Virus record (IMG/VR): IMGVR_UViG_2562617158_000001
Location: 13,029-77,028 of that record
Length of the DNA: 64,000 nucleotides
Direction: 5' to 3' (one strand)
Source: a virus
Taxonomy: Duplodnaviria > Caudoviricetes
This document shows, in pieces, positions 2,759 to 39,014 of the stretch. How positions within the stretch are numbered: the stretch's first letter is position 1; each line of letters begins with the position of its first letter. Under the pieces are notes generated by a model, which searched no databases, was not told the DNA's origin, and worked only from the letters and a program-made list of their open reading frames with translations. Made by a program: the position numbers and the translations under genes.

Positions 2759-3315
2759 AGGATTCTATTGAACAATTCCTAGATGATTATAAAGCAGGGC
2801 GCATTGACGTCAACGCACTCCAAAGGCGAATCAATTATATGGATTGGAGCCAGAATAAGCCGATGGCAATGCCGATGGATTATATCGAATCCAGTGAGGA
2901 GCCATGTGAAACCCTTGTTAACAGAGAGAAGTCTAATGACCTCGCTACGGCATTACATGACCTAAAAATGAACCTCTCAGATGATGACTGGAACATGTTT
3001 CTCATGACGGCCAATGGTTGTACCCAAGAGGAAATCGCCAACAAGTTACACTATACCCGCAGTTCAGTCATACGGCATATGCAGCGCATTGCCAAGATCA
3101 AACCTGAGTTACGTACTTTACTGAAAAAGGATACCCCAATGTACTTCGCGGATACGCCAAAGGATAAGCTGCGGTATCCCATGGACATTGCACGGAAGGT
3201 CACTGACCCAGACGGTAAAGTCCGTTGCCACCTTCCTGAATACCTCCATACCCAGGATTGTGACTCTATCTGTACCTATTGCCAAAACTGTACTCGTAAG
3301 ACTTCCCAGTGTTAA
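2755..3315 (+). CDS. sigma-70 region 4-like HTH protein with C-terminal Cys cluster
   Basis: LSDDDWNMFLMTANGCTQEEIANKLHYTRSSVIRHMQRI resembles a sigma r4 HTH; C-term CxxxCxxCxxC. Confidence 0.55.
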   Translation: MKDSIEQFLDDYKAGRIDVNALQRRINYMDWSQNKPMAMPMDYIESSEEPCETLVNREKSNDLATALHDLKMNLSDDDWNMFLMTANGCTQEEIANKLHYTRSSVIRHMQRIAKIKPELRTLLKKDTPMYFADTPKDKLRYPMDIARKVTDPDGKVRCHLPEYLHTQDCDSICTYCQNCTRKTSQC

Positions 3316-5438: not shown

Positions 5439-6676
5439 TCATAATCGCTTCACGGCGAGTGCAAACGTAATGGTCTGGCTCATCCTGTCAAGTATAACAC
5501 AGAAGTTGTTCCCATAGGACTTCTGCATATCTTCGTAGTCTGCATAGCATACTACAGGGTCGCCTTCTTCCTCGGCAATGACAAAACGACGTTGATGCAT
5601 CCATTTCTCACGCTCCTCGTCGCTCGTGAACGCATAAGAACTAAAACCGCCGCAGCCAACACCACGGCTCCAGAACTTTGCATAGAATAGGTTCTTCTTG
5701 TTGGTGTTCTTGTCCATAGTCATTTTATTTCTCCTCCTCTTTCTCGATAGACAACAAGCAATCACCCATAAGGTCTTCTCTATTGTCGTAGTCATCAATA
5801 TCACGGCCACAATAATAAGCTAACTGGTCGTATGCATCGCTGTCAACGACATCCCAGGAGTCAGCCTTGTCTGTTTCCTTTTCGATATAGTCATACAATT
5901 CTCTTGCGGACGGATTGTAGTAGTTTTCATTCCTTGCGGTTCTAACGTCGTTCGTCCAATTTCCATTGCCATCTGTCCAAAGCATTGTCAATCATCCTCC
6001 TCTTCCAGTTTCTTTCTCATGTCCTTCTCGATGTAGTCGGCCATGATTTCTTTCAATGCATCCGTAATAGCAGATACGCTGTCAAATTCATCATCCATAA
6101 GGTCAGCCGCAATAGTATTCCCTGGTCCGAATGATAAAGTCGTATGGCCGTATTTGTTCTCTGCATTGATATCAATCTCAATCGTTGCTTTCATTGTAAT
6201 CATCCTCCTATTCCTATTACTTCCTGCGGATGTATTCAAGTTCGTCTAACACATAATCAAACCTACATCCATGAACCGACGAATAAAGTGGACATCTACC
6301 ACATTGATGTTCGTGAGTAGTAGTACGGCATCGCAAGTAATTTCCTTCATAGTTTCTACTTCTTTAATTATATTTTCCAATCTTGTCATAACACTCGCTC
6401 CTATTACTTCTTATCTACCCATTTGATTGTCTTTACAGGGACAACCTCTTGACATTCGACTTCCTCTTCGTCTTCCCAAGGCGTCCAATCCTCTGGCTCC
6501 TCTGGTTTATCATAACTAGCTCGATATGTCTTTCCGTCTACGTCCCTGAAAATCAACGTATGGTCGACCAGGCCACAATCAGCGTAGTCAATTGTATCCT
6601 CGATGAAATATTCGTTACACAAACTATATGGGAGACCAAGCTCCTCAATAAGATATTCCCTCTTGAATTTCTTCAT
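5439..6676 (-). other. cluster of small leftward hypothetical genes (approx. 5439-5723, 5725-5991, 5988-6194, 6246-6389, 6404-6676)
   Basis: tightly packed acidic ORFs, each with a GGAG-type RBS. Confidence 0.6.
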
Positions 6677-7290
6677 CGTAATCACTCCTATTTCATTTAC
6701 TAGTTGCCCATACTACTAAAAACGTAAATATAATCCCTGCCGTAATCATTCCTTCATCATCTGCTACTTAAAACATAGATAAATGTGCCTATGCTAAGAT
6801 GTTTTGCTACAATCTCACGATTTGTAGTTCCTTGTTCATCATATCCGTCCTCGCCGTCAAAAGACAGGCTACTAACGTTTGAGTGATACTCCAAAGGCGT
6901 AAATTCCCGACTAGCCATCGGTACATATTGACAGTATCTTGTTTGTGATATTCTGCCAATTACATCTAGTAGCTTTCTCCTTTCATAATATTTTGTTTTT
7001 GCGTATTGGTTCGCCAACCTTGCTTGGTTCTCGCATTTACCACTGTCCAACGGCTACCATCAGGGTTCTATCCCGTAGTTAGACGGACTGTTTCAACCGC
7101 CTCTGGCTTATTTCCAGCCGTTCCGACTGCTGTAAAGTCAGCACAAACTAACTCAATGGATTCTTTGAGTCTTTAGCATATTGCTACACTTTTATTCATA
7201 TTTGAGCATCCTTTCAGTTGCTTAAATTTCCTGTTTTTATTCACCAGTTGACCATACAATCAAAAAAGGTAAACAAAATAACAGCTGCAA

Positions 7291-17484: not shown

Positions 17485-17677
17485 TAAGATTAGCTGCTTT
17501 GCAGATTGTGGCAGTGAGTGCCTTATAATGCGTGTTCCGTATGATATTGCAGCCACGATGATGAAGAATATGCCTGAATCTGATGCTAAAAACCAACTCA
17601 TAGAGCGTGCAAGGGTGGCTTCTAGGCGTTCAAAGATATTGAAATCGGCTCTCGATGAAATTTTTGAAAAAAAATAA
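17481..17677 (+). CDS. hypothetical protein
   Basis: ATGA overlap with upstream stop. Confidence 0.45.
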
Positions 17678-17692
17678 AAAAAATTACAAAAC

Positions 17693-17744
17693 ACCGAACA
17701 ATTACCCCCATTTTTATACATTATATATAGAGGGGTAATTTTAT
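17693..17744 (+). promoter_or_regulatory. conserved phage promoter-like motif, copy 2 of 3
   Basis: accgaacaattacccccatttttatacattatatatagaggggtaattttat; AATTACCCC/GGGGTAATT inverted repeat encloses the TATATA. Confidence 0.6.
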
Positions 17745-17930
17745 ATGATTATCACTCGTAGACACGGTTCGCCTCCTTACCGTGTCTATTTTCATGTCCA
17801 AGAGGCATAGGTGGGAAACTATTGTACACTCCCACCACCTACCGTCATAACGACGAACACGGTATATGGATTTCCCCTTTCGTTCATATGCCGTTACCAT
17901 GGCAGGGACAAGGTTAATGCCTTGAATCTG
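17745..17930 (+). ncRNA. candidate sRNA with anti-Shine-Dalgarno-like loops
   Basis: 9-bp stem TAGACACGG/CCGTGTCTA with CCTCCTT loop; further stems; motif shared with 19717-19775. Confidence 0.4.
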
Positions 17931-17969
17931 CATTGAACGAGAATGGGGATGTGTAGAAAGGGAATTGAT

Positions 17970-18560
17970 ATGAATGAGAATTTTGGCGCGGTCGCTCATG
18001 TTGAATCTTACGGAGTGACCGTTAGTATTTATGGAACGTTACGGATGCCCTTTGTTAAGGCAATGGACTTAGCTGATTGGATTGACCATCGGTTAGGCCG
18101 TACAGAGGTCATGGTTGAGACGTTGGGTATCAGTCCATATCGTGATGAAAACAATGAGCCGTATTATACATTGCGGACAGCTGCAAAAACAATCCTTGAA
18201 TATTTCCCTAGAGGAAATGGCAAGGCTTTCCTTGATGTGATTCATCGGAAACTCAAGTACCTCAATGTACGTGATGGACGAGAGTATATGAATCATGTTG
18301 ATGATGATAAGGTATTCTCCATGAATCAGTTTGCAGGAACTGTATGGAATAGATTCAGTATTGGACACAACAAGCTGTATCGTTGGATGGTGAATCATGG
18401 ATATATCTATAAGACACCTGAGAACAAATACATGCCATATCAGCGTTACATTGACTATGGATGGTTTATTGTCAATCCGCTGAAAGACGATAGGTCCTAT
18501 ACGGAAATCACGAGTTTAGGATCGTTGGTGTTGATGGAATCTCTAGAGCGTCACAACTGA
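17970..18560 (+). CDS. phage antirepressor with KilAC (ANT C-terminal) domain
   Basis: FSMNQFA..IGHNKLYRWMVNHGYIYK..YMPYQRYIDYGWF. Confidence 0.8.
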   Translation: MNENFGAVAHVESYGVTVSIYGTLRMPFVKAMDLADWIDHRLGRTEVMVETLGISPYRDENNEPYYTLRTAAKTILEYFPRGNGKAFLDVIHRKLKYLNVRDGREYMNHVDDDKVFSMNQFAGTVWNRFSIGHNKLYRWMVNHGYIYKTPENKYMPYQRYIDYGWFIVNPLKDDRSYTEITSLGSLVLMESLERHN

Positions 18561-18576
18561 CGCTCTTTTGTTTTAT

Positions 18577-18599
18577 AGGAGTGTAGCCAAGTGGCTATG
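18577..18599 (+). pseudogene. 5' fragment of a disrupted tRNA (Gln-type)
   Basis: AGGAGTG-TA-GCC-AAGTGG; AGGAGTG pairs with CACTTCT at 19455-19461. Confidence 0.75.
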
Positions 18600-18620
18600 T
18601 GTTAAAGATATGAATATTAT

Positions 18621-18695
18621 AGGGATATAGTTTAATGGTTAAAACGATTGACTTTGAATCAATAGATTTCAGTTCGATTCTGAATATCTCCGCCA
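18621..18695 (+). tRNA. tRNA-Gln(UUG)
   Basis: cloverleaf: GTTT/AAAC D stem, ATTGA-CT TTG AA-TCAAT anticodon arm, TTCAG-TTCGATT-CTGAA T arm, G73, encoded CCA. Confidence 0.92.
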
Positions 18696-18727
18696 TTGAT
18701 ATGTTTTTTAATACTTGGTGATGAATA

Positions 18728-19426
18728 TTGACAAAATACGATTATAGTAGAGAGAACTTAGCTAAAATAGTCTCTCAGTCTGAATCTATTTCTGATGTTG
18801 CAAGAGCCTTAGGAATGACTACGAAGGGTGCAAACCATAATACGTTAAAAAGAAAAATTAACGAATTTGATTTGGACACAAGTCATTTTAAAGGGAAAGG
18901 ATGGAGCAAGGGCAGGAGCCTTGAAAAAGTACCTATAGAAGATTATTTAAATAATACCAGAAAAATATCTTCATGGAAATTAAAAAATAGACTTCTAGAA
19001 GAGCATTTGAAAGAAAATGTTTGTGAAATATGCGGCATATCAGAATGGAATGGAAAGCCAATTTCTTGTCAACTACACCATAAAGATGGAGATAATACTA
19101 ATAATTCATTAGATAATCTACAAATGTTATGCCCCAATTGCCATAGTCAAACAGATAATTTTGCAGGGAGGAAAAATCGTAAACATAGTGCGAGGAGACG
19201 TAAGCATATATCAAATATTGATAGAGCACTAACAAAAGAAGAACGGAGTAAGATAAATCAACACCCTCGACTAGGGCTTAGACGGGTAGCTAGGCCAAGC
19301 TATTTACAATTTAAGAAAGAATTAACGGAATTTAATAATAACTATTGTGCGATGGCAAGAAAGTATGGTATTTCTGATAGTGCTATAAGAAAGTGGGAGA
19401 AATCCTATAAAAAATATGGGGTTTAG
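18728..19426 (+). CDS. HNH homing endonuclease
   Basis: CEICG..LHHKDGDNTNNSLDNLQMLCPNCHSQT; AT-rich codon usage. Confidence 0.93.
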   Translation: MTKYDYSRENLAKIVSQSESISDVARALGMTTKGANHNTLKRKINEFDLDTSHFKGKGWSKGRSLEKVPIEDYLNNTRKISSWKLKNRLLEEHLKENVCEICGISEWNGKPISCQLHHKDGDNTNNSLDNLQMLCPNCHSQTDNFAGRKNRKHSARRRKHISNIDRALTKEERSKINQHPRLGLRRVARPSYLQFKKELTEFNNNYCAMARKYGISDSAIRKWEKSYKKYGV

Positions 19427-19465
19427 GTCCTGCATCCGTTGGTTCGAATCCAACCACTTCTGCCA
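19419..19465 (+). pseudogene. 3' fragment of the disrupted tRNA (anticodon loop, T arm, acceptor strand, CCA)
   Basis: GGG-TTTAGGT-CCTGC-ATCC-GTTGG-TTCGAAT-CCAAC-CACTTCT-G-CCA. Confidence 0.8.
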
Positions 19466-19479
19466 ATATGAAATTACAT

Positions 19480-19882
19480 GAAATAGCCATCGGTATGTCT
19501 GTGAACAGAATCCGTAGAATGGGCGTTGGCATTCCTAGACCTTGCGGAGGGGTCTATAATATCTAACCGTAAATGTCATCGGGGTTTTCACAGGGATTCC
19601 GATGACTACATAGATTATTACACTGTATGCATAAAAGCATGGTTCGCTATGAGAATCATTGCTAACCCATATGGTGTTCATCACGGTGAGTCGGGGTAGC
19701 TCCCCATAGACAGGTTTCCATTCCTTCCCCTGTCAGCTCACCGTTATTTATGACAAGAACAAGGTTAACGCCTTGTGATTGCGAACATGATATGTGAAAG
19801 CTGAAAATTCAGCTGTAACCTATTTAGCTCGTCCGCAACAATGCGGAATCGAGTATCTGGGGTCGTAAGACGCGACCCCTGC
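19480..19882 (+). ncRNA. candidate highly structured ncRNA in the tRNA island
   Basis: no credible ORF; many stems (GTCATCGG/CCGATGAC, ACGGTGAG/CTCACCGT, GACAGG/CCTGTC, AGCTGAA/TTCAGCT, GGGGTCG/CGACCCC). Confidence 0.45.
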
Positions 19883-19886
19883 TTAT

Positions 19887-20003
19887 GTCGTAGTAGCTCA
19901 AGGGATGGACATTCCATCTGTGGCGAGAGCAAAGGAGCATATGCTTAACGAGGTGCACATCGTTAATTAATCCTTGATACGGGTTCGAGTCCCGTCTATG
20001 GCT
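19887..20003 (+). ncRNA. tRNA-like RNA with insertions in the D loop and anticodon loop
   Basis: GTCGTAG/CTATGGC acceptor, GCTC/GAGC D stem, AAGGA/TCCTT anticodon stem, ACGGG-TTCGAGT-CCCGT T arm; 27-nt D loop, 34-nt anticodon loop. Confidence 0.75.
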
Positions 20004-20009
20004 TATTAT

Positions 20010-20084
20010 GCCAATGTGGCGCAATGGTAGCGCAGCGCACCTGTAATGCGAAGGTTGTCAGTTCAATCCTGACCATTGGCTCCA
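20010..20084 (+). tRNA. tRNA-Thr(UGU)
   Basis: GCCAATG/CATTGGC acceptor, GCGC D stem, CC TGT AA loop, GTCAG-TTCAATC-CTGAC T arm, encoded CCA. Confidence 0.88.
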
Positions 20085-20116
20085 TTAAAAAACAATACAC
20101 AGAAAGGGTTTATCAT

Positions 20117-20410
20117 ATGGATGACTACAGAGTACCAACGGATGAACAGGAGACAGTTATTCAATTTGACCGCAATGGCACGGTTTGCCATGTCTATACA
20201 ACAGACCTCACTGTGATGACAAAGCTTGATAAGAAATACAAGCGTGTCAAACAGGATTATGTTAATAGAAAGCCCATTGCGGCGTACTATGAGTTTGATA
20301 AGAGACTACTGTCGTTTCGCTCTAAGGTAATGAAAAAGAATCTTTCCGATGAAGAAAAGAAAAAAGCTAGAGAACAATTAGCGAAGAACAGAAAAATGAA
20401 AGGAAAGTAA
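20117..20410 (+). CDS. hypothetical basic protein
   Basis: RBS gaaaggg before MDDYRVP; the longer ORF call overlaps the tRNA. Confidence 0.55.
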   Translation: MDDYRVPTDEQETVIQFDRNGTVCHVYTTDLTVMTKLDKKYKRVKQDYVNRKPIAAYYEFDKRLLSFRSKVMKKNLSDEEKKKAREQLAKNRKMKGK

Positions 20411-20489
20411 TTTCAATTCTATGTCAAATTTTTAGGTAATACAACCTATATTTGCCTTGTCCTTCCGTTGGCCTATATAGTTAGACCTA

Positions 20490-21161
20490 TTGGAAAAACA
20501 AGGAGGAATTTCTATGGCAAACAAGCATCCAGTGCCACCACCACCGAGAATCAATCGAGCAGACCATCCGCATTTTGAATCTGCGGGTATGACATTGGTC
20601 GAACAGTACAACCTGACAAACCTTGTCCGTGAAAAGCGCATGCAGGGCATGAGTTACCGTGAGTTGACGGATTACATCAATAACACAAAGGGACTCATTC
20701 CGAACAACTATAAGATTTCACACAATTCTATTGCGCGTTACTGTAGAGACCACGGACTTGGCGGGGATGTCTCTGAGCAATCCAATGATGAAGCTGTGAA
20801 TGTATATAGAGAGAATTGTAAATCTCTCCATGACATCAACACAGCTCTCGATATCATCTCTGTACAACTCGATGAAATGAATAAACAGGTTGGCAAGGGT
20901 TCCGTCAATGTAAAGGACCTGAGTGTCATGATTAACTCGTTGGATAAGCTCACACTGCGCCGTCAAACGCTCACGGCATCCATCGGAGAGATGCAGGAGA
21001 AAGTATACAAATACGAGACGATCTCTCGTATCATTGGCACAGTGATGGCAAAGGTATCTGTATGGATTACACCAGAACAGTATGAAGAACTCAAAGATAT
21101 GCTTCGCCAGGACCCGATTCTCTGTGAAGCATTACGTGAAGTTGCACCATCTAACATTTAA
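20490..21161 (+). CDS. putative terminase small subunit (HTH plus coiled coil)
   Basis: REKRMQGMSYRELTDYIN..ISHNSIARYC HTH-like segment; position upstream of terL. Confidence 0.5.
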   Translation: MEKQGGISMANKHPVPPPPRINRADHPHFESAGMTLVEQYNLTNLVREKRMQGMSYRELTDYINNTKGLIPNNYKISHNSIARYCRDHGLGGDVSEQSNDEAVNVYRENCKSLHDINTALDIISVQLDEMNKQVGKGSVNVKDLSVMINSLDKLTLRRQTLTASIGEMQEKVYKYETISRIIGTVMAKVSVWITPEQYEELKDMLRQDPILCEALREVAPSNI

Positions 21162-21261: not shown

Positions 21262-22167
21262 ATGGGCGAAAAAGGAAATCATGCAGTACAAGACACGGTG
21301 ATTGTTGATGGAGATGTCTATATGGACAGCCGTGTGATTGCATGGGAGTTGCACCGCGCTCACAAGGATATCCTCGAAAAGGTACGTAGGTACACAACGG
21401 ATTCCCTTGATTCTTACTATATAGACAAACAAGGGAAAAGACGAACGTCATATCTTGTCTCTCGTGATGGTTTTATCTTGATGAATATACAAGGACGCGT
21501 CGATGAACGACTCAGGATTCTCCATCGTTATGACATGGCTAAATCCGTAACAACTATTGATAAACAGCTCAATGCATTACGTCACGATCTTAATGAATCT
21601 GGTGTTGTCCGTCCATGGATTAATCCAAGGTATCAGCTTGATAATCTCAAGTCCATCTACAAGGATGTGACTGGTGATGATACGCCGAGAGGTTTCTATG
21701 ATTCCATCGGTGATTGGATGGGTATCAATGTACCCTATAGCCATCGTTTGAAAATCACTGTACGGGATTGGATTTTACAGAATATCCCGATTGAGAAAAT
21801 CAAGGAATTCGTCACAGGTATTCAATCACACACCATTGTCCGTAGCGAACGAGGGCATTGGATTTGTCTTGGCGGATTCGACAACAACACCGTTGAATGG
21901 GACAAGATTGTCAATGAATTCCATGGAAAGTGCGCATACTGTGGCGAAGAGAAGCCATTGTTGCCAGAGCATATCATTCCGCAAACAGTGCTCAGTAAGG
22001 AGCATCCAGAGCTTGTCGATAGGATTCAGAATGTTGTTCCTAGCTGCTCTGATTGTAACCATAGCAAATTACGGTACAACTGGGAGCGATGGTTTAAGAG
22101 TCAACCATTCTATACAGAGTCCCGTTTCAATGCGATAAAAAGACATATTAACAAATACAAGATGTAA
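21262..22167 (+). CDS. Rha-like N-terminal domain fused to a C-terminal HNH nuclease
   Basis: MDSRVIAWELHRAHKDILEKVR..YIDKQGKRRTSYLVSRDGFILM (Rha); CAYCG..EHIIPQ..NVVPSCSDCNHSK (HNH). Confidence 0.8.
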   Translation: MGEKGNHAVQDTVIVDGDVYMDSRVIAWELHRAHKDILEKVRRYTTDSLDSYYIDKQGKRRTSYLVSRDGFILMNIQGRVDERLRILHRYDMAKSVTTIDKQLNALRHDLNESGVVRPWINPRYQLDNLKSIYKDVTGDDTPRGFYDSIGDWMGINVPYSHRLKITVRDWILQNIPIEKIKEFVTGIQSHTIVRSERGHWICLGGFDNNTVEWDKIVNEFHGKCAYCGEEKPLLPEHIIPQTVLSKEHPELVDRIQNVVPSCSDCNHSKLRYNWERWFKSQPFYTESRFNAIKRHINKYKM

Positions 22168-36900: not shown

Positions 36901-38824
36901 TGCAAACGAGAAAGCATACTATGAAGCCTTAGAGAAGAACCGCAAGGGCTGGGCTGATAAATACGATGAACTCACAGATGCTATCTCTCAGAATCTTAAT
37001 GAACACGTAGAAATCAAGCAGAAGCTCGACGGCAAGAATATCTTTGATATGCCACAGGATGAGCTGAATAAGCTCTTAGACCTGTCCAAAGGCGATGACC
37101 CAGAGCTTAAGCAACTCGTTGACAATCTGTTCAAGGTACGTGAACGACTCAGTAATACCGATAGTAAACTCGTTGAAGCCCGTACTGCTGAGAAGATTCG
37201 CAACGGTTATATGAACCCTGAACAAGATGAGGATTATAGGCTCAAACGTCTGGACAAATGGTATAACCGTACAACGGCCAATAAGACAGATGGAGAGAAG
37301 TATACGGATACTCATGAGTATTACCAAGCACAGCTTGAAATTTATGAGGAACGCCGTGCACGCCAAACGAAAAAGCTCATGGACATTCGTAGACGTGACC
37401 AAGAGCAGCTTGAAGACTACTATAACCAGATTGATGAGCTAGAGCATGGCAAGAGGAATGAAAAGGGCGAAGTCACACAGAAGGGACTTGACCAGTACAA
37501 TGGTGATTCTTCAGATGAAGCCAAGGATAAGATTGCAGAGCTCAAGGCTAAAATCAAGGACCTCAAGGAGAACACCGACCAACTTGCAAAGCATGGCAGT
37601 GAGAATTTCCAGAAAGTACAGAAGGAAGTCGAAGATACCGAAGCGAAAATCCGTGAGATCGCTGAGAAAGACAATGAAGTCACGAAGAATCTCTGGGATA
37701 CCATTGAGAATGATATTGATGATATGTTCTTCGATATTATCAAGCAGGGTGGTTCGTTCAAAGAGTCTTGGAAAAAGCTCTGGGATGACGTTGCCAAGAT
37801 TGCATTGCAACAAATCATGCGCATGACGGTCAACAAATGGCTGTTCAAGATGCGCACGACGATTGACGATGCGATTGACAATAGGAATGCAGGGAAAAAC
37901 GCTGCTATCAATGCAGGCGTCGGGCTTGCATCGAGGTTCACAACATCGCCAAAGAGATGGAATCAGGTTGCTACTGGTAATCGTTATCTTGATATGGCGA
38001 ATGGCGTAACGAATGGCAACTTCTTCCCCATGAAATCCAGTGGTGCTTCTGATAAACTTGCGACGAATATCAATAAGTCCGTGCAGGCCACCAGTAAGCT
38101 CAGTAACGTCACACAAAAAGCAACTGCGCTTACCAACGTGTCGAATACATTGACGCAGACAGCAACTGCAAAGGGTGCATTGAATACTTCGGCTACCACA
38201 GCGCAGACTATGGCAACTCAGGCTAATACTTTGGCAATGCAGGCTAATACCGAGGCAAGGATAATGGCAGGAACCCCAATTACTCAGTTTGCCAATGGTG
38301 GCTCTATTTCCTCTCGTCTGCTTACCGCAGCATATGCTAATGGCGGCTCTATTCCAGGCTATGCAAGCGCAGGGCTTATCCGTGGAGCAGGCACAGGGAA
38401 ATCCGATAGTATTCTTGCGTATCTTGCCAATAAGGATAAGTTTGTATACCTCTCTAATGGCGAATACGTCATGACGGAAGAAGCAACGAATCGCATCGGA
38501 AAAGACAATTTAGATGCCATGAATTACGGTAAATTTGCCGATGGCGGTGCGTTGAATCCAACTCCTTATGTCCCACAAATTTCCCCTAGAATTGCAAGGA
38601 GAATTGAGAATATCACACCGAATAATCCTAATGCACGCATGGAAAAACTCATGCAGGAGCAGACGGATACCATTCGGAATATGGGTAATTCCGATGGTTC
38701 TGGCAATGTGATTGTGTTGAATACACACGCATCTAGTGATGATGTTTTAAATGCAATCCAGAAGAATCCAAGGGCATTCCAGGCTATCACACAAAGACAG
38801 AAACGTCACGGTTTCCGTAGTTAA
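33917..38824 (+). CDS. tape measure protein, exon 2, with peptidoglycan hydrolase domains
   Basis: long helical region; glucosaminidase/lysozyme-like MMHESG..NHNFAGL; CHAP-like TCAAFVS..WMHIGI. Confidence 0.85.
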   Translation, partial: KFQWAKAAAMFSNYQEIIKNWGLAVNSMGFTDNQVKNQMDSLSRRINKLKADLTGLVAQGGNSGLTQWLKECVTELDNLAKFLSTVSTSTYHFIGSFTKLLMIMYLVNKATRLLRTSLNMITTSGATATITSMSTAFASATTTAEGLRAAIIALRHSINLLKAAATVGVSIAIDLGLEALTDYIDNTTNAVEKQTEAVSNDMAVKRQQIEMYNQQEDFLDALFVAHQKLTAEIESSTVSDEKKKKLLEDRIETENQMANVVGGSAVQQMQADNWTDASTKKVRDNYVNATEAKKKSLAQFLSAKQQEAVKNYRIATENMQNWKEETDQFCRATGDKINALHAYVSAQELVATVEEKVHQLQKSSAEQGLENFKQKQYELSQLQNDPNHEWTSSDQEALDNANRMVSRLNGDVDRLNKEIYNDRHTIQWEQTGAELAKEEEAARKAFMDIGGANLVNPGGVMSPDDFLQKWGSGEGAGGDEYNHTPTSKQHHERKKKDPNYVKEDWQYGDTTSQMFAELSKKFESKFDTKNGLDMATLSAIVTKLTGINTLDFDGVSDPFGTGGRNTWESGRLFYQKMAPYLAQGLSVPQALGHLTPGITDEEWKTWLDDKALYLRNKYNYTKNDQRFSDPNEQSGGLYDLGGAPTSGGGDEDYVGNDVDEGHLWELAVIAANQAKVVKDPLYYWLIMMHESGRGKDGTSVANHNFAGLGGGSGVDMQTDANFASTFARTLDGMFTSAPNNIGELVYGMYTHGYFTGDAEAYQSDLEGIKNEGLVSGGNNQGTGVSSAPIGDAVYDEALKESAERKGQALGANTCAAFVSYVTRGIGANTGIDDPLVKNWVDKAQANGAWVDSSSGQTAPKGSLVVWSREGEQDGNPWMHIGISDGQGGWISSDTHGLKHHTGLDSYYSGNGYNYAGYIDMAKLTGGQTVSGYATPRKPSFWNGHKSSLADFTRDQIAETIYDQDRQQKLYEARKKNFEYQMKIHGETYALLRANDANEKAYYEALEKNRKGWADKYDELTDAISQNLNEHVEIKQKLDGKNIFDMPQDELNKLLDLSKGDDPELKQLVDNLFKVRERLSNTDSKLVEARTAEKIRNGYMNPEQDEDYRLKRLDKWYNRTTANKTDGEKYTDTHEYYQAQLEIYEERRARQTKKLMDIRRRDQEQLEDYYNQIDELEHGKRNEKGEVTQKGLDQYNGDSSDEAKDKIAELKAKIKDLKENTDQLAKHGSENFQKVQKEVEDTEAKIREIAEKDNEVTKNLWDTIENDIDDMFFDIIKQGGSFKESWKKLWDDVAKIALQQIMRMTVNKWLFKMRTTIDDAIDNRNAGKNAAINAGVGLASRFTTSPKRWNQVATGNRYLDMANGVTNGNFFPMKSSGASDKLATNINKSVQATSKLSNVTQKATALTNVSNTLTQTATAKGALNTSATTAQTMATQANTLAMQANTEARIMAGTPITQFANGGSISSRLLTAAYANGGSIPGYASAGLIRGAGTGKSDSILAYLANKDKFVYLSNGEYVMTEEATNRIGKDNLDAMNYGKFADGGALNPTPYVPQISPRIARRIENITPNNPNARMEKLMQEQTDTIRNMGNSDGSGNVIVLNTHASSDDVLNAIQKNPRAFQAITQRQKRHGFRS

Positions 38825-39014
38825 GATACTATAGCATGTATGCATAGGAGCTATATGTTTCTATGCATATTTCTATGGTATCTTGAAATAAATGTCCATC
38901 GGTAGTGTACAAAATATGCTGAGAAAACACATAGAAAAGGCATATGGGCGCATTAAATATGGCAAAAATAGAACATGCTTTAGAACGATAAGTAAAACTT
39001 TGATTAAACTTTCA

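Follow-up and report, generated by a model that had tools for sequence, protein, structure and literature searches.

In the usual view, selfish endonuclease genes persist in essential genes because they reside in introns or inteins, which are removed by splicing. Group I introns occur in the anticodon loops of bacterial tRNAs, and I-HmuI is an HNH nuclease that is encoded within an intron. Integrative islands and prophages that target tRNA genes carry an intact tRNA at one end and a duplicated 3′ piece of the tRNA at the other. The nrdA gene of Aeromonas phage Aeh1 is reportedly split by mobE, giving genes-in-pieces through the insertion of a homing endonuclease. Within a phage tRNA gene cluster, SegB of T4 and T6 is a free-standing homing endonuclease (PMC2330249; PMC13096335), which cuts tRNA gene sequence and carries the neighboring tRNA genes along (PMC2330249). 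The mobile endonuclease ORFs (mORFs) of fungal mitochondria displace the end of a gene, supply a foreign one in its place, and leave the native end behind as a remnant, as in the gene hybrids of Allomyces (atp6) and Glomus (atp6, atp9, cox2, and nad3) (PMC3630166).

Here we analyze a 64-kb stretch (the window) of a 77,028-bp phage genome assembled as one contig, in which a resident tRNA-Gln(UUG) gene is split by a cassette consisting of a second tRNA-Gln(UUG) gene, which we call the cargo, and a gene for an HNH endonuclease. We consider it likely that this is a homing cassette that breaks the resident gene while supplying a substitute tRNA-Gln. The closest published logic is that of the fungal mORFs (PMC3630166), where an endonuclease ORF likewise lies inside a gene together with a foreign replacement and a downstream native remnant; the mORF order of gene start, foreign replacement, endonuclease ORF, and native remnant is found exactly in two relatives of the window phage (L040 and L047, below). 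However, mORFs target protein genes, replace only the C-terminal part in frame, and encode LAGLIDADG or GIY-YIG endonucleases, whereas the window supplies a whole tRNA gene and keeps a 5′ remnant too.

The cassette resembles SegB in its working but is no member of the SegB type. In both, a nuclease gene lies among phage tRNA genes, and by analogy the cassette enzyme would, as SegB does, recognize tRNA gene sequence, spread with its neighbors, and cause rearrangements between tRNA genes. SegB is a GIY-YIG enzyme that recognizes a T-arm motif and sits between intact tRNA genes, whereas the cassette encodes an HNH enzyme and interrupts a tRNA gene whose isotype is that of its own tRNA and whose two halves remain; no GIY-YIG domain was found in the cassette ORF, which matches only HNH and helix-turn-helix families. 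With group I introns and I-HmuI the cassette would share the placement of a selfish element in the anticodon region of a tRNA and an HNH enzyme aimed at the uninterrupted allele, but the window has no ribozyme, its exons are incomplete, and function would be kept through a spare gene rather than by splicing. Integrative islands, too, are bordered by an intact tRNA and, at their other end, by a tRNA 3′ piece. They use an integrase, however, and their attachment site regenerates the tRNA that they target, while the working tRNA here is a different gene; the cassette contains no integrase, only the tRNA and the HNH ORF, and no direct repeats at its ends. In Aeh1, too, a free-standing endonuclease gene is said to split a phage gene without an intron and with function kept, but there two protein pieces reassemble, whereas the gene split here no longer works and the cassette supplies a substitute. 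We found no account of a break-and-replace layout for phage tRNA genes in the literature, of which the journals were covered incompletely.

A Foreign Cassette within a Resident tRNA-Gln Gene

The left neighbor of the cassette is a KilAC/Ant-like gene (17943–18560), 3′ of which a terminator-like hairpin and T run (18545–18575, plus strand) form part of a conserved left flank that is collinear with that of a relative, L001. The 5′ piece of the resident tRNA-Gln(UUG), AGGAGTGTAGCCAAGTGGCT, follows at 18577–18596 (plus strand; 20 nt, tRNA positions 1–20) and comprises the 5′ strand of the acceptor stem, U8/A9, the 5′ side of the D stem, and most of the D loop. The 3′ piece, TCCTG CATCC GTTGG TTCGAAT CCAAC CACTTCT G CCA, lies at 19428–19465 (plus strand; 38 nt, tRNA positions 39–76) and comprises the 3′ side of the anticodon stem, the variable loop, the T arm, the 3′ strand of the acceptor stem, G73, and CCA. 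The acceptor halves AGGAGTG and CACTTCT form seven pairs, one of them G-U. When introns were allowed, ARAGORN reported a “tRNA-Tyr(ata)” that ends at 19465 and would contain a 99-nt intron; we rejected this candidate, which joins the 3′ piece to random sequence of the HNH ORF.

The two pieces are halves of one resident tRNA-Gln(UUG) gene, as had been proposed in the first-pass annotation of this DNA, which also suggested seeking the uninterrupted gene in relatives. Such a gene is present at the same place in L001, a 77.3-kb IMG/VR contig whose Ant-like protein is 91% identical to that of the window (6623–6699, 64.9 bits). Collinearity extends from window 18414–18594 (L001 6460–6640, 92%) on the left to window 19428–19477 (L001 6662–6711, 92%) on the right, and the L001 stretch between these blocks consists of 21 nt without a counterpart in the window. 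The 5′ piece is identical to L001 6623–6642 at 18 of 20 positions and the 3′ piece to L001 6662–6699 at 34 of 38; a second relative, L040, has the same 3′ piece after its HNH gene. An empty allele closer to the window than that of L001 was found in run X10, an anaerobic-digester metagenome. There, a contig matches the window up to 18596, which is joined to 19428 via the 19 letters CAAGGCACAGGACTTTGAC, and these letters, set between the window flanks, give a 77-nt tRNA-Gln(UUG) in ARAGORN. The same run also has a contig across the left cassette junction, so that both alleles occur in one metagenome. Overall, the HNH gene is polymorphic for presence at a single site: the site is empty in L001 and the joined X10 contig, and it is occupied in the window, 16 further contigs, and X10.

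From the collinear alignment with L001 and the joined X10 contig, the cassette extends from 18597 to 19427 (plus strand, 831 bp), where it replaces 19 nt of the tRNA, namely the end of the D loop, the 3′ side of the D stem, the 5′ side of the anticodon stem, and the entire anticodon loop. Its order is a 24-nt spacer, the cargo tRNA, a 32-nt spacer, and the HNH ORF, followed directly by the resident 3′ piece. The cassette is foreign, with a GC content of 32.7% against 43.5% for the genome, and no other 831-nt stretch is lower. It is not an assembly artifact, since the identical HNH protein was found in the same context on 16 contigs from several samples, and the whole stretch 18300–19700 is present in seven small sequencing runs. 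At the cassette ends we found no terminal or direct repeats and no target-site duplication. A 9-nt direct repeat flanking the cargo tRNA, ATGAATATT, was discounted as being at about chance level for AT-rich DNA, and promoter predictions were not in excess (8 found, 9.5 expected).

These limits correct several details of the first-pass annotation. The 3′ fragment had been started at 19419, but 19419–19427 is cassette sequence that is not derived from the tRNA. The HNH stop codon TAG (19424–19426) had been placed at the anticodon; in the register of the intact allele, in which the 3′ side of the anticodon stem is TCCTG and a 5-nt variable loop follows, it is off by one and falls on loop positions 35–37. 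Nor is it a mutated anticodon, given that the entire loop lies within the 19 replaced nt and close homologues of the enzyme end in KYGV and a stop. TATG had been noted at both junctions; it is at the left one, but the right-hand copy is set back from the junction by 10 nt, within the cassette, and there is consequently no junction repeat.

Between the fragments, the intact tRNA-Gln(UUG) and the HNH gene that had been read from the letters both hold up. The cargo tRNA (18621–18695, plus strand; ARAGORN) passes the tRNA covariance-model test (Rfam, 67.7 bits against a cutoff of 29). It has the anticodon UUG, an encoded CCA, G73, and an A1·C72 mismatch; by folding energy alone it shows no cloverleaf (z 0.06), despite the high covariance-model score. 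The cargo had been called unrelated in sequence to the resident tRNA. The two are 58% identical, and the cargo is a distinct tRNA-Gln gene whose stems differ from those of the resident and whose anticodon loop is nearly alike (CUUUGAC vs CUUUGAA).

The HNH gene (18728–19426, plus strand; 232 aa) starts with TTG behind GGTGAT at 18716–18721 and matches the phage family phrog_10822 across the full profile (E 1e-50). Helix-turn-helix parts at both termini of the protein surround a CxxC...HH...N...CxxCH core. The motif residues C99, C102, H117, H118, N130, C135, C138, and H139 are invariant in 13 homologues, and the C-terminal KYGV and stop are conserved among close homologues; with the motif intact and this C-terminus conserved, the ORF is whole. 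Pfam matches fall just under the cutoffs (HNH, 20.1 bits vs 21.4; HNH_3, 20.4 vs 24.8). The predicted structure (pLDDT 79) gave only weak HNH and helix-turn-helix matches in Foldseek, the best being McrA, Cap5, and Cas5-HNH with weak E-values, and a sequence search of solved structures with the protein gave no match, so that no close solved structure was found by either means. The protein could lack activity, or its cleavage site could be a different one.

Allelic States in Close Relatives and Recurrence of the Layout

The relatives described here were found by protein-guided searches. Near and distant DNA searches of GenBank phages with the region returned nothing or the HNH core only, and scanning IMG/VR with exact patterns of the uninterrupted tRNA and of the cargo tRNA gave no match. 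In the phage group to which the window belongs, the locus exists in an empty state and in at least three cassette alleles, and three alleles occur among phages in which the neighboring Ant gene is 89–96% identical. L040, with an Ant gene 96% identical to that of the window, carries a different cargo tRNA-Gln(UUG) that starts exactly at the resident tRNA start, with no separate 5′ piece. The 5′ part of its HNH gene is only 72% identical to that of the window, whereas the last ∼140 nt, comprising the HNH end and the 3′ piece, are 91% identical and the junction is the same. This combination of a differing cargo and HNH 5′ part with a shared 3′ end and junction shows that cassettes turn over at the locus. 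In L004 and L005, the resident tRNA-Gln is intact and belongs to a second type; their relative L047 has a third cassette, followed by only the last 18 nt of that lineage’s resident tRNA. L002 and L003 have no intact tRNA-Gln at the locus, where the acceptor-stem hairpin alone is left; tRNA-Gln can thus be lost within the group. We note that this hairpin of acceptor halves, GGGGATG...CATCCCC ACCA (L002, 6610–6660, and L003), may be the scar of a tRNA or cassette loss.

The first-pass annotation had also suggested looking for the layout in other phages. At least five other phage contexts (L041, L042, L043, L055/L061, and L070) show the order 5′ piece, tRNA-Gln, HNH gene, 3′ piece. The acceptor halves of the two pieces match in these contexts, and in every nested case the isotype and anticodon of the spare tRNA are those of the broken gene. 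In L042 (HNH 56% identical to that of the window), the 5′ piece runs to position 34 and is followed by 26 nt, a cargo Gln, the HNH gene, and a 3′ piece from position 35, such that the HNH stop TGA is formed by tRNA positions 35–37. In L043 (HNH 53% identical), the pieces cover positions 1–38 and 39–76; in both L042 and L043 the two pieces sum to a complete tRNA. L041 (HNH 54% identical) has a 5′ piece (1–34) that is fused to the decayed 3′ half of a tRNA-Trp, then a cargo tRNA whose T arm is identical to that of the window cargo, and an HNH gene whose end reaches into the T loop of the 3′ piece. The fused gene at L041 3792–3869 is a hybrid pseudo-tRNA, joined in the anticodon loop, whose decayed half resembles the tRNA-Trp at L043 204–279; this hybrid points to tRNA genes having recombined at the break. 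L044–L046 (HNH 61% identical over the N-terminal 152 aa) have a cargo, a truncated HNH gene, and a 3′ piece. More distant copies (HNH ∼40% identical) occur in the same nested layout on human-gut contigs of up to 184 kb (L055/L061 and L070), and their acceptor halves covary (TGGGCTA/TAGCCCA in L055 vs TGGGCAT/ATGCCCA in L070).

The two junctions behave differently. The 3′ junction is nearly constant at positions 35–40, the exception being L047, where the 3′ piece starts in the T loop. The 5′ junction varies; it comes after position ∼20 in the window, 34 in L041 and L042, and 38 in L043, and there is none in L040, L044, and L047. Because the 5′ junctions differ from case to case, many of the events involved illegitimate joining or subsequent deletion instead of clean homing.

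In L014–L016 (around 2880–3000), a 5′ half resembling tRNA-Leu(UAA) precedes HNH homologues with ∼42% identity across the N-terminal 150 aa. These may be further loci of this type, with tRNA-Leu as the split gene; we considered a group I intron at these genes and dropped it, as Rfam gave no match. Some other homologues lie between intact tRNAs of one isotype (Trp-HNH-Trp and Leu-HNH-Leu).

Proposed Route of Spread and Alternatives

We propose a route that is read from the anatomy of the locus and its comparison with relatives. The setting would be the co-infection of one cell by cassette-bearing and cassette-free relatives, in which the HNH enzyme would recognize the resident tRNA-Gln gene in its intact form and cut it. 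We place the site around the anticodon stem-loop, a part that is missing or interrupted in every cassette-bearing allele. Repair of the break from the cassette-bearing genome, via flanking homology that includes the two tRNA pieces, would copy the cassette in. The resulting allele would be immune, its target site having been destroyed, and the cargo tRNA gene, which differs over the target stretch, would be spared. As the cargo would keep one working tRNA-Gln(UUG), the insertion would be near neutral for the phage. The cassette’s own 3′ piece would serve as homology on one side, and the other side would often be resolved illegitimately. A constant 3′ junction with a variable 5′ junction fits these last two steps, and the Gln/Trp hybrid of L041 would be such an illegitimate join. 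The first-pass annotation had envisaged a self-compensating homing unit. The split of a real tRNA-Gln, the foreign low-GC cassette, and the independent recurrence of the tRNA-Gln/HNH pairing all stand, and the last is as such a unit would predict; cutting, homing, and compensation are putative.

An alternative is that the nuclease is an ordinary free-standing endonuclease of tRNA arrays, with the adjoining tRNA-Gln co-converted or kept for the transcription or RNase P processing of the nuclease mRNA, and with the loss of the resident tRNA being incidental. SegB is a precedent for the co-conversion of neighboring tRNA genes (PMC2330249), HNH homologues in tRNA arrays adjoin various tRNAs (Leu, Trp, Lys, and Asp), and L002 and L003 do without any tRNA-Gln at the locus. 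Nevertheless, we judge this reading unlikely. The spare tRNA matches the broken gene in isotype and anticodon in every nested case, and Gln is strongly enriched directly upstream of the HNH gene. A same-strand tRNA lies within 130 nt upstream of the HNH homologue at 55 of 112 loci and is Gln at 31 of these 55, although Gln makes up 12% of all tRNAs in the 112 loci (binomial p 4e-15, over loci that are not all independent and include some near-duplicates); at 16 of the 112 loci, a cargo Gln is accompanied by an orphan T arm after the HNH gene. Furthermore, exactly one intact tRNA-Gln(UUG), resident or cargo, is kept at the locus by six of the eight group members that were fetched as loci or read directly (the window, L001, L004, L005, L040, and L047). 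The tRNA-Gln/HNH linkage could reflect shared transcription or a tRNA-array neighborhood instead of selection for compensation.

It is quite improbable, in our estimation, that the cassette was acquired once from a large AT-rich phage by nonhomologous exchange, that its nuclease is dead or domesticated and inherited passively, and that the alleles arose by ordinary recombination. The 19-nt deletion and the variable 5′ junctions do look like illegitimate joins, and target-site duplications are lacking. However, the ORF is of full length with motif residues invariant in 13 homologues, an identical gene is found in many samples, the same layout arose in several unrelated phages, and three alleles exist among phages with Ant genes 89–96% identical.

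A role in defense against the host is less probable still. In this scenario, which echoes a link to host anticodon nucleases drawn in the first-pass annotation, the spare tRNA-Gln would resist a nuclease that attacks the tRNA-Gln of the resident gene or the host, and the HNH enzyme would spread it. Phage tRNAs can counter tRNA-cleaving defenses, and SegB amplifies such genes (PMC13096335, PMC11555353); the stems of the cargo do differ from those of the resident. On the other hand, the anticodon loops are nearly the same, and no tRNA-Gln-cleaving defense was identified here, so that the link, though possible, gains no support. Such a role would in any case supplement a homing cassette rather than replace it. 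Finally, an intron that is spliced out to rejoin the pieces as a working tRNA, for which the insertion in the anticodon-arm region (the site of bacterial tRNA group I introns) and the complete sums of pieces in L042 and L043 might speak, is excluded for the window by the absence of 19 nt of the tRNA, by the lack of any Rfam intron family match in 17500–21000 at E up to 10, and by the presence of fewer than 60 nt of cassette outside the tRNA and the ORF, which leaves no room for a ribozyme.

If the resident gene is indeed broken and replaced by a homing cassette, this case and its relatives seem to represent a third route, beside introns and inteins, for an RNA gene. The target would be destroyed and a working substitute delivered, and the selfish gene seems to avoid harm by a spare copy, not by self-splicing. 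The homing cassette would explain why phage tRNA clusters contain tRNA fragments and duplicate tRNAs of one isotype, and annotators could read such fragments as the footprints that mobile cassettes leave. Three natural alleles at one locus in close phages, and one metagenome with both states, make the system directly testable, and the nuclease family may be a source of enzymes that recognize long sites in tRNA genes. We put forward more tentatively the possibility that tRNA-plus-HNH cassettes are a general, self-contained class of phage mobile elements, whose tRNA halves would act as portable homology arms into the same-isotype tRNA genes of unrelated phages and whose spare tRNA would make invasion nearly cost-free. 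Were this so, the cassettes would be a main driver of tRNA turnover, hybrid tRNA genes, and tRNA remnants in phages.

Other Features of the Region

Several further features were observed around the locus. The seven runs that contain 18300–19700 have 3–4 million letters each, are filed under named organisms, and date from 2008–2024; none of the runs listed with this stretch is of RNA. Cultured isolates may carry the phage. The sole other stretch of the genome with a GC content as low as that of the cassette, at window ∼38720–38900, may be a second foreign insert. A second HNH-containing ORF, in which a Rha-type N-terminal part is fused to an HNH domain, is located 1.8 kb downstream of the cassette (21262–22167).

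The conserved noncoding stretch from tRNA-Gln to tRNA-Thr contains a Bro-N/antirepressor-like ORF in L001 (7064–7711, corresponding to window ∼19790) and in L040 that the window does not have. Directly after the tRNA 3′ piece, a 141-nt stretch with a long imperfect hairpin (19473–19613; z −2.0) is likewise polymorphic, being present in the window and L001 and absent from L040 and from contigs of runs X8, X11, and X12. Just before tRNA-Thr, at 19887–20006, lies a tRNA-shaped RNA whose D and anticodon regions contain additional hairpins; its acceptor halves GTCGTAG and CTATGGC pair, and its T arm is normal. An Rfam match to YrlA at 19959–20053 (25.5 bits vs 69) was set aside, as it joins a T arm to the D arm of tRNA-Thr. 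Counterparts of the tRNA-shaped RNA follow tRNA-Gln in L004, L005, and L047 (Rfam tRNA, 38 bits, L047 1968–2066), and ARAGORN reads the L004 copy as a tRNA with a 2-base anticodon.
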